Shown here piece after piece: positions 1 through 1,123 of a DNA stretch of 1,123 nucleotides. The stretch lies in NCBI RefSeq assembly GCF_003334355.1, contig NZ_QOWP01000097.1; one strand, given 5' to 3'. Made by a program: the position numbers and the translations under genes. Below the pieces are notes generated by a model that searched no databases, was not told the DNA's origin, and saw nothing but the letters and a program-made list of their open reading frames with translations. Each line of letters starts with the position of its first letter. The first letter of the stretch is position 1. This stretch comes from Escherichia coli (GTDB lineage: Bacteria > Pseudomonadota > Gammaproteobacteria > Enterobacterales > Enterobacteriaceae).

Positions 1-1100
1 TAGTTTCTGTCCATGGCTGCTTTTCGCATCTTACGTCTTAACCCTGCCTTGAATACCTTATCATTCGTCAAAATATTAATAGCAATGTGCCGTATCCCTG
101 AAAATAATTCTGCTGCATTTCCTCTTCTTATTTTGCAGTCGTCTTCATTCATTACCACGTCCAGACGCCAGTGCAGCTTATTCTCCACGTGCCAGTGATT
201 TCGGATCGCTGTGGCGAATTTCTCAGCGGTTAAATCAGCAGAACTGATATAATATCTGACCGTTATTTCTGGCTCTTTCTTTTGTTCTGCTATTATGGAC
301 CGAAAGGAGACTGCCACGCATAATTTCTTCAGCCCTTTCCATTCAAACGTGAAATCAATAAGTTCATCAGGGACATCGCAAACAATATGAAGACGGATTT
401 CTTCTCTGCCGTGACTCTTTTCACTCATTGCGTAACTGTCATGCTCTGGATTATTTAATTCTTTCAGCGGAAATTTTTCCTCAAAGGCTTTATTTAGCCG
501 CCCCTGGTTTCCTTTTACCGCGAATAAATAATCACCTCCCTGTTTTTGTATCTTCTCTGCAATATCTTTCTGGCAACCCATCGCATCAGTTGTGATGATT
601 TTTCCTTTAATATCCAGCATGTTAAGAAGTTCTGGGATAGCTGTAATCTCATTAGATTTCTCATCCGTCTTGATCTGTCCGATGACCAGACTGTGCATTG
701 TTGAGAACGCACTAATGACATGAATCGCTCCCCTGCGGCGACTCTTGTCATAAGAGTGCCGGAGCGTTTTTCCATCAATTGCAATGACGTCTTTATCATC
801 TGAAGAATGGCAGTCACGCATCCAGTTAATAAAGCACTCGTGAAATTTTGCAGGACTGATACAGGATACAACTCTGGCAATGGTATCGTGAACAGGAATA
901 CCATTTTCAAAATCACCATATTGCTTCAAAAAATCGAGATGTGTTTCCCCAAAATCCTCTATATCTTCCCAACCTTCTGCACCAGAAATAACGGCACAAA
1001 TAGTCAACAGTAGAATATCCGATAATTTATGTTCCACTTTCCAGGGTTGTCTGTAATCGGGGATAATAGAAATATGTTCCATCAATTTTTTAAGTTCCAT
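1..1100 (-). CDS. ISAs1-family DDE transposase (H-repeat-associated protein, H-rpt; YhhI/YdcC-like), 3' end truncated by window edge
   Basis: Hand translation of the reverse complement from the ATG at 1100..1098 gives an uninterrupted 366-codon frame: [366 protein letters not shown], followed by a partial codon TA at positions 2..1. From memory this closely resembles the E. coli H-repeat proteins (ISAs1 family), including the [15 protein letters not shown] and NHWHVEN motifs. I cannot tell which paralog it is, so no gene symbol is given. No stop codon is in the window; the C-terminus lies beyond position 1. Confidence 0.9.
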
Positions 1101-1106
1101 TTTGTT

Positions 1107-1112
1107 CTCCTT
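1107..1112 (-). promoter_or_regulatory. Shine-Dalgarno ribosome-binding site for the transposase gene
   Basis: On the minus strand the sequence reads AAGGAG (plus-strand ctcctt at 1107..1112), followed by a 6-nt spacer (AACAAA) and the ATG at 1100..1098. This is canonical SD spacing. Confidence 0.65.
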
Positions 1113-1123
1113 AATTATGTAAG

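Follow-up and report, generated by a model that had tools for sequence, protein, structure and literature searches.

The ISAs1 family of insertion sequences, whose prototype is ISAs1 of Aeromonas salmonicida and which also includes IS1358 of Vibrio cholerae and IS1548 of Streptococcus agalactiae, typically has ends in CAGGG, and its definition is not known to require a target-site duplication. Some members of the family have been captured by trap plasmids (PMC3281130), whereas transposition of the Escherichia coli element ISEc1, or H-rpt, is reported not to have been observed (PMC3032704). O-antigen clusters have been described that contain H-repeats at recombination junctions (PMC3715488, PMC9705854), and one Rhs locus has been located between nikR and yhhJ (PMC2935791). 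The rhsB locus (b3481-b3485) is present in strains K-12, B and Crooks and missing from W, and in W an Rhs element lies within the b0215-b0221 interval, where yafF lies in K-12 (PMC3032704).

We analysed a 1123-base stretch of E. coli DNA, referred to below, at its full length, as the window, and found that all of it (positions 1 to 1123, no strand assigned) is the interior of a single copy of ISEc1, as judged by the limits of homology between the K-12 copies yhhI and ydcC. The feature is thus a textbook element, ISEc1/H-rptB (yhhI), and already known. Very probably it represents 1123 internal base pairs of the 1291-bp ISEc1 that in K-12 is the yhhI (H-rptB) copy, at the edge of an Rhs island.

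The element and its transposase gene

Genes annotated 'yhhI: ISAs1-like element ISEc1 family transposase' share 99.8% identity with the window across all 1123 bases, and the K-12 reference copies yhhI and ydcC share 99.6% and 98.4%, which bears out the claim of the preliminary description that an IS element is present. Homology between K-12 yhhI and ydcC extends over exactly 1291 bp (L002, 11954-13244, with window base 1 at L002 12001), a length that we take to be the size of H-rpt/ISEc1. In window coordinates the element therefore spans -46 to 1244, with 47 bp beyond the low-coordinate end and 121 bp beyond the high-coordinate end, such that the terminal repeats and any target duplication fall outside the window. 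The GC content of the window is 40.4%, and that of the core genes flanking the K-12 copy is ~57%. Of 5,426 complete E. coli genomes, 5,343 contain similar sequences, at a median of 5 places per genome and up to 14, so that short-read assemblies break at this element; none of the 5,426 genomes matches the window exactly, the best having 2 mismatches. The window has no match to an Rfam family at E values up to 1.

The preliminary description had pointed to terminal inverted repeats as a check, and orthologous and paralogous copies do carry them, as imperfect 11-bp repeats matching at 10/11 positions (CAGGGAAAGAT / CAGGGCAAGAT). A search for this motif inside the window, allowing up to 2 mismatches, gave no match, and the 47 bp of the element past window base 1 would end in ...ATCTTGCCCTG. 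A separate, imperfect inverted repeat (17/21) pairs window 36-56, close to where the transposase gene ends, with L002 11949-11969, the latter comprising the IS end and 5 flanking bases; since the match relies on flank bases particular to that locus, it is probably due to chance.

A single long open reading frame occupies the minus strand, starting with an ATG at 1100 and remaining open to base 3 for 366 codons free of stops. This transposase coding sequence (3..1100, minus strand) comprises codons 1-366 of 378, its last 12 codons and stop being cut off by the start of the window; the orthologous coding sequences of strains S30 and K-12 encode 378 aa and end in ...DRNYLASVLAGSGLS. A Shine-Dalgarno sequence, AAGGAG, lies 6 nt 5' of the ATG (1107..1112, minus strand), within the first 23 nt (1101..1123, minus strand) of a 144-nt leader that reaches from the left inverted repeat to the ATG. 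The promoter region and the left inverted repeat are outside the window. No sigma-70 consensus was found on the transposase strand within the leader of the K-12 copy, and a promoter and terminator scan of that copy gave promoter counts not above those of shuffled sequences. The remaining two minus-strand frames contain many stops, and the plus-strand reading frames of 31-68 aa are all antisense to the transposase gene.

The encoded protein matches the NCBIfam model NF033564, 'ISAs1 family transposase', over positions 1-314/314 (E 1.9e-125), scoring 418.2 bits where the cut-off is 70. Two Pfam domains are also found: DDE_Tnp_1_assoc (PF13808) in the N-terminal part, at residues 8-94 (819..1079, minus strand; E 1.2e-33), and the catalytic domain DDE_Tnp_1 (PF01609) at residues 102-343 (72..797, minus strand; E 8.1e-31). 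Three acidic residues are invariant in an alignment with 10 homologues that reaches down to 67% identity, namely D109 in AIDGKT (774..776), D172 in TTDAMGCQ (585..587) and E306 in HWxxE (183..185), all encoded on the minus strand; on the strength of the DDE motif they are candidates for the catalytic residues. There is no visible damage across the 366 codons, and a dN/dS of 0.11-0.16 between yhhI and ydcC indicates past purifying selection on the transposase. A sequence search for relatives of solved structure returned only a chance match to CheY (E 1.1).

By analogy with other DDE enzymes, the transposase would bind the imperfect terminal repeats (CAGGG...) just beyond the window, and the D109/D172/E306 triad would cut and rejoin the DNA. 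The enzyme may still be active; against this stand the report that H-rpt has not been observed to transpose (PMC3032704) and the lack of a target duplication at any of seven copies. In practice, the copy acts as an island edge that is inherited vertically and as a repeat usable for homologous recombination.

Allele class and locus of the closest copies

Comparing the window with the K-12 paralogues, we found that it differs from yhhI by 0.4%, from ydcC by 1.6% and from ybfL and ybfD by ~4%, and that it carries the yhhI allele at 15/15 of the sites that separate yhhI from ydcC. Ranked by identity to the window, ISEc1 copies fall into two groups: in 60 rows sampled evenly from 5,358 ranked records, 17 were at least 99.4% identical and all of these were named yhhI, and the others were at most 98.9% identical. 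The window belongs to the class at or above 99.4%, which is present in ~1,500 of the 5,426 complete genomes. This allele class is strong evidence of the locus, short of proof because paralogous IS copies can exchange sequence.

Within the class, the window has a combination of alleles of its own. The S30 copy differs from it at bases 264 and 1046, and the copy in strain G4/9 at bases 264 and 445, such that the window shares 445T with S30 and 1046G with G4/9. Base 1046 is the first base of codon 19 (minus strand) and has three alleles: the window and G4/9 encode Pro, S30 encodes Ala and K-12 encodes Thr. The T at base 264 (minus strand), which changes Met279 to Ile, is absent from every copy that we aligned directly, and Ile stands at the corresponding position in Salmonella and E. 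fergusonii homologues. A 60-base pattern with 264T had no match in the genome or metagenome contig collections, nor did one with 1046G in the genome contig collection, and the 378-aa protein rebuilt from the window and the S30 C-terminus is not on record. All substitutions found among four orthologous copies (4/4) are non-synonymous, a number too small to interpret.

The setting of the closest copies was read from genomes that carry the same allele class and that serve here as proxies for the window's own flanks. In all four inspected genomes of the class (S30, K-12, G4/9 and EM03-18-08), ISEc1 begins 154 bp past the yhhJ stop codon and has an rhs toxin gene within ~1 kb on its opposite side, in the order yhhJ, ISEc1, rhs, nikR. 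The yhiI-rbbA-yhhJ operon flanks the element on one side, and rhs followed by nikR-nikABCDE on the other. Every inspected genome with the window's allele class therefore has the element in or at the edge of an Rhs locus, a location also seen for other ISEc1 copies, and in 9/9 genomic contexts inspected ISEc1 lies downstream of an rhs gene and points in the same direction. The yhhJ side is conserved core DNA: a query containing yhhJ matched all 5,426 genomes, and the yhhJ 3' end was present in 23/24 sampled rows. The Rhs side differs from strain to strain: next to the element, S30 has a yibA fragment, yhhH and rhsB, and G4/9 has a partial H-rpt and ybfC together with an rhs gene whose tip is different. 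By its alleles, the window's own genome would share the yhhJ/Rhs context.

The preliminary description had named two settings for the element, Rhs loci and O-antigen clusters. Both are borne out for H-rpt in general, in that the K-12 copies lie at Rhs sites and O-antigen junctions are documented (PMC3715488, PMC9705854). For the closest copies the first holds, with an rhs gene beside each of the four class copies, and the second does not, as no O-antigen genes occur within 12 kb of the closest copies at the S30 and K-12 loci; a galF-gnd cluster setting was rejected on the same grounds. A setting that would have spoken against both, namely core flanks free of Rhs and O-antigen genes at a site common to all relatives, was not what the proxy loci presented, one flank only being core.

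One alternative is that the window comes from an ISEc1 copy elsewhere, whether on a plasmid, within an O-antigen cluster or at a different Rhs locus, which acquired yhhI alleles through gene conversion or recent transposition from the yhhI copy. Genomes have up to 14 matching places, H-repeat remnants do occur in O-antigen clusters (PMC3715488, PMC9705854), and the pairing of 445T from S30 with 1046G from G4/9, plus an allele seen nowhere else, is what a recombinant might carry; yet every inspected copy at or above 99.4% identity sits at the yhhJ site, and copies at other loci do not exceed 98.9%. Moreover, copies at least 99% identical occur in ~1,510 genomes, a number below that of genomes whose yhhJ junction carries a fuller IS (1,836), and the best plasmid and phage matches reach 99.3% and 97.9%. 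We consider this alternative unlikely, and favour the yhhI copy at the yhhJ site. A plasmid or phage origin was rejected on the basis of those two best matches, several of the 'plasmid' records carrying chromosomal Rhs-site genes. As to the records themselves, several of the PLSDB entries with ISEc1 (H35, H36, H38, H42; L013, L014) look chromosomal: two have lengths of 4.8-4.9 Mb, nfrA/nfrB or narI-nhoA-ansP are present in others, and those examined were typed as non-mobilizable.

The island edge and its variable contents

To count the boundaries of the island, we used the sequence junctions at its two ends. The junction between yhhJ and the IS end occurs in 2,113 of 5,426 complete genomes and that between nikR and rhs in 2,112, the two being compared as totals and not genome by genome. 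This near-equality makes the IS end look like a fixed island edge, and strongly suggests that it is a boundary of the Rhs island rather than a solo insertion. At least 90 nt of the IS is present at the yhhJ junction in 1,836 of the junction-bearing genomes, and the K-12-type junction between the IS and truncated yibA in 1,806 of them. The near-equal totals are the one mildly interesting quantitative result of this analysis, and by them H-rpt acts like a permanent component of the island and not like an independent mobile insertion.

The sequence on the Rhs side bears on how the edge arose. The gene yibA lies downstream of RhsA, and in the K-12-type arrangement the IS adjoins a fragment that matches its first 347 nt at 97% identity; the K-12 Rhs-side flank as a whole (L002, 13245-13643) matches the end of rhsA and the start of yibA (L008, 6286-6684), also at 97%. 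The rest of yibA is absent at the K-12 yhhI locus, and the flank on the yhhJ side is unrelated to yibA. The IS thus sits exactly where the paralogy between RhsA and RhsB ends. A simple insertion, of which no footprint survives, fits this flank less well than an IS-associated deletion or junction does. Target-site duplication, which the preliminary description had put forward as showing whether the element inserted alone or in a composite structure, was found at none of 7 copies at 6 different sites, these being related copies and not the window's own flanks. Membership in the ISAs1 family still stands, because the family definition is not known to require such a duplication.

Whether the element had inserted alone or as part of a composite structure had also been raised. 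A composite transposon was rejected, as the 25-kb K-12 and S30 loci each hold one full IS copy and the G4/9 locus adds only an adjacent tandem fragment; the junction totals, for their part, suggest that the element did not insert alone and that it is an island edge. We propose that the copy would form the distal edge of an Rhs polymorphic-toxin island in the nikR-yhhJ interval, downstream of rhs and in the same orientation, and that it would have been inherited together with the island rather than as a free-standing recent insertion.

The interval that holds the island is itself variable, in support of the earlier proposal that the IS marks an accessory region whose cargo lies outside the window, as far as the closest copies report on it. 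An Rhs island occupies the yhhJ-nikR interval in ~39% of genomes, and the others have a PTS/aldolase operon and/or hicAB. For example, the interval holds an Rhs island with ISEc1 in K-12, an operon of GntR, PTS, FGGY-kinase, HPr and class II aldolase genes in SF-173, hicAB together with the GntR/PTS/aldolase operon in O157:H7 FRIK2533, and hicAB alone in d1-58; the non-Rhs contents span L005 12556-18156, L006 12519-18809 and L007 12550-13136.

Where an Rhs island is present, its contents change behind a constant junction, which is kept across three different Rhs-side arrangements. In G4/9 the yhhJ junction is unchanged and the IS is 99.2% identical to K-12 yhhI, and the segment from the IS to the rhs core (L011, 7954-11778) is 98.3% identical to the region downstream of K-12 RhsC (ybfO-ybfC-ybfQ-ybfL), not to that of RhsB. 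This similarity suggests a cassette exchange between Rhs loci, which may have been bounded by the core and the H-rpt. In strain 190693 the yhhJ junction retains only the last 47 bp of the IS, fused to an N-terminal part of the transposase gene (L010, 12601-13178), an internal deletion of the IS, and beyond it follow an IS630 fragment, a sel1 gene, several orphan tip/immunity genes and a full-length yibA. Outside this interval, O157:H7 carries a copy of another ISEc1 class in the order VgrG, Rhs, orphan toxin, ISAs1, nfrB, and STEC1575 has two tandem Rhs units at the RhsE site with H-rpt copies after each. In K-12, each of the six matching places falls within an Rhs locus or at a site already known for Rhs.

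Such arrangements raise the alternative that H-rpt is a working part of Rhs islands, serving with the rhs core as a second homology arm for swaps of tip/immunity cassettes, or acting as a domesticated recombinase. The RhsC-type cassette (98.3%) between a yhhI-type IS and the rhs core in G4/9, the purifying selection on the transposase and the constant position of the IS, downstream, co-oriented and at the island edge, would all suit such a role; this evidence is correlative, however, and homologous recombination between any repeats gives the same pattern. Furthermore, experiments linking H-rpt to tip exchange are lacking, the main study of rhs evolution is silent on H-rpt (PMC2935791), and many Rhs loci have no H-rpt, as exemplified by RhsA in K-12. 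We therefore regard a working role as doubtful. It is similarly improbable, in our estimate, that H-rpt is a conserved distal bookend which lets toxin-tip/immunity cassettes move between Rhs loci, with the transposase perhaps assisting; the G4/9 arrangement hints at this, being compatible with the idea rather than a demonstration of it.

That ISEc1 is instead an independent and recently active IS, which lies near rhs by chance and marks nothing in particular, is hardly credible: the ORF is intact, the DDE residues are conserved and relatives have been captured by trap plasmids (PMC3281130), but the totals of the two junctions are nearly equal (2,113 and 2,112), the yhhJ junction survives three Rhs-side arrangements, no target duplication accompanies any of the 7 copies, and ISEc1 follows rhs in the same orientation in 9/9 contexts. 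As a marker of an Rhs polymorphic-toxin island within a chromosomal interval of variable content, the element can help in comparing strains, and it has little significance beyond annotation.

Comparison with known systems

The nearest described counterpart is ISEc1/H-rptB of K-12 (yhhI, b3484) in RhsB, to which the window aligns over 1123 bases with no gaps, sharing the ORF, its start, the ribosome-binding site and the allele class. Four bases set the two apart, corresponding to T19P, M279I, another substitution at base 445 and a leader change at 1118. The yhhI-locus copies of S30 and G4/9 are the best matches, with 2 mismatches each, and differ from one another in their Rhs-side neighbours.

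The paralogous K-12 copies, ydcC in RhsE, ybfL/ybfD/ybfQ in RhsC and the yafF remnant, are of the same 1291-bp element type and have the same ends, with identities to the window of 98.4% for ydcC, ~96% for ybfL/ybfD and 96.7% over window 1-244 for yafF. They differ in lying at other loci, several being truncated or pseudogenes, and 15 fixed differences separate ydcC from the yhhI class. The yafF remnant is a 244-bp 3' piece of H-rpt near aspV (L009, 14099-14342). Directly upstream of ydcC in K-12 RhsE lies yncI (L004, 8594-9592), a distant ISAs1-family pseudogene with ~67% nucleotide identity to the window.

With the ISAs1 family at large, the window's element shares a transposase of the DDE type encoded by a single ORF and, as read from its orthologous and paralogous copies, a small size and short terminal inverted repeats starting with CAGGG. 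The assignment was made through the family model, which the protein matches end to end. Some members of the family are reported to transpose (PMC3281130), unlike H-rpt (PMC3032704). The H-repeat remnants in O-antigen clusters of Salmonella groups D2 and D3 and of some E. coli are of the same element type, yhhI having been the reference in the Salmonella study (PMC3715488). Those remnants lie at recombination junctions within the clusters, whereas the closest copies of the window have no O-antigen genes within 12 kb and stand beside an rhs gene at the yhhJ junction.
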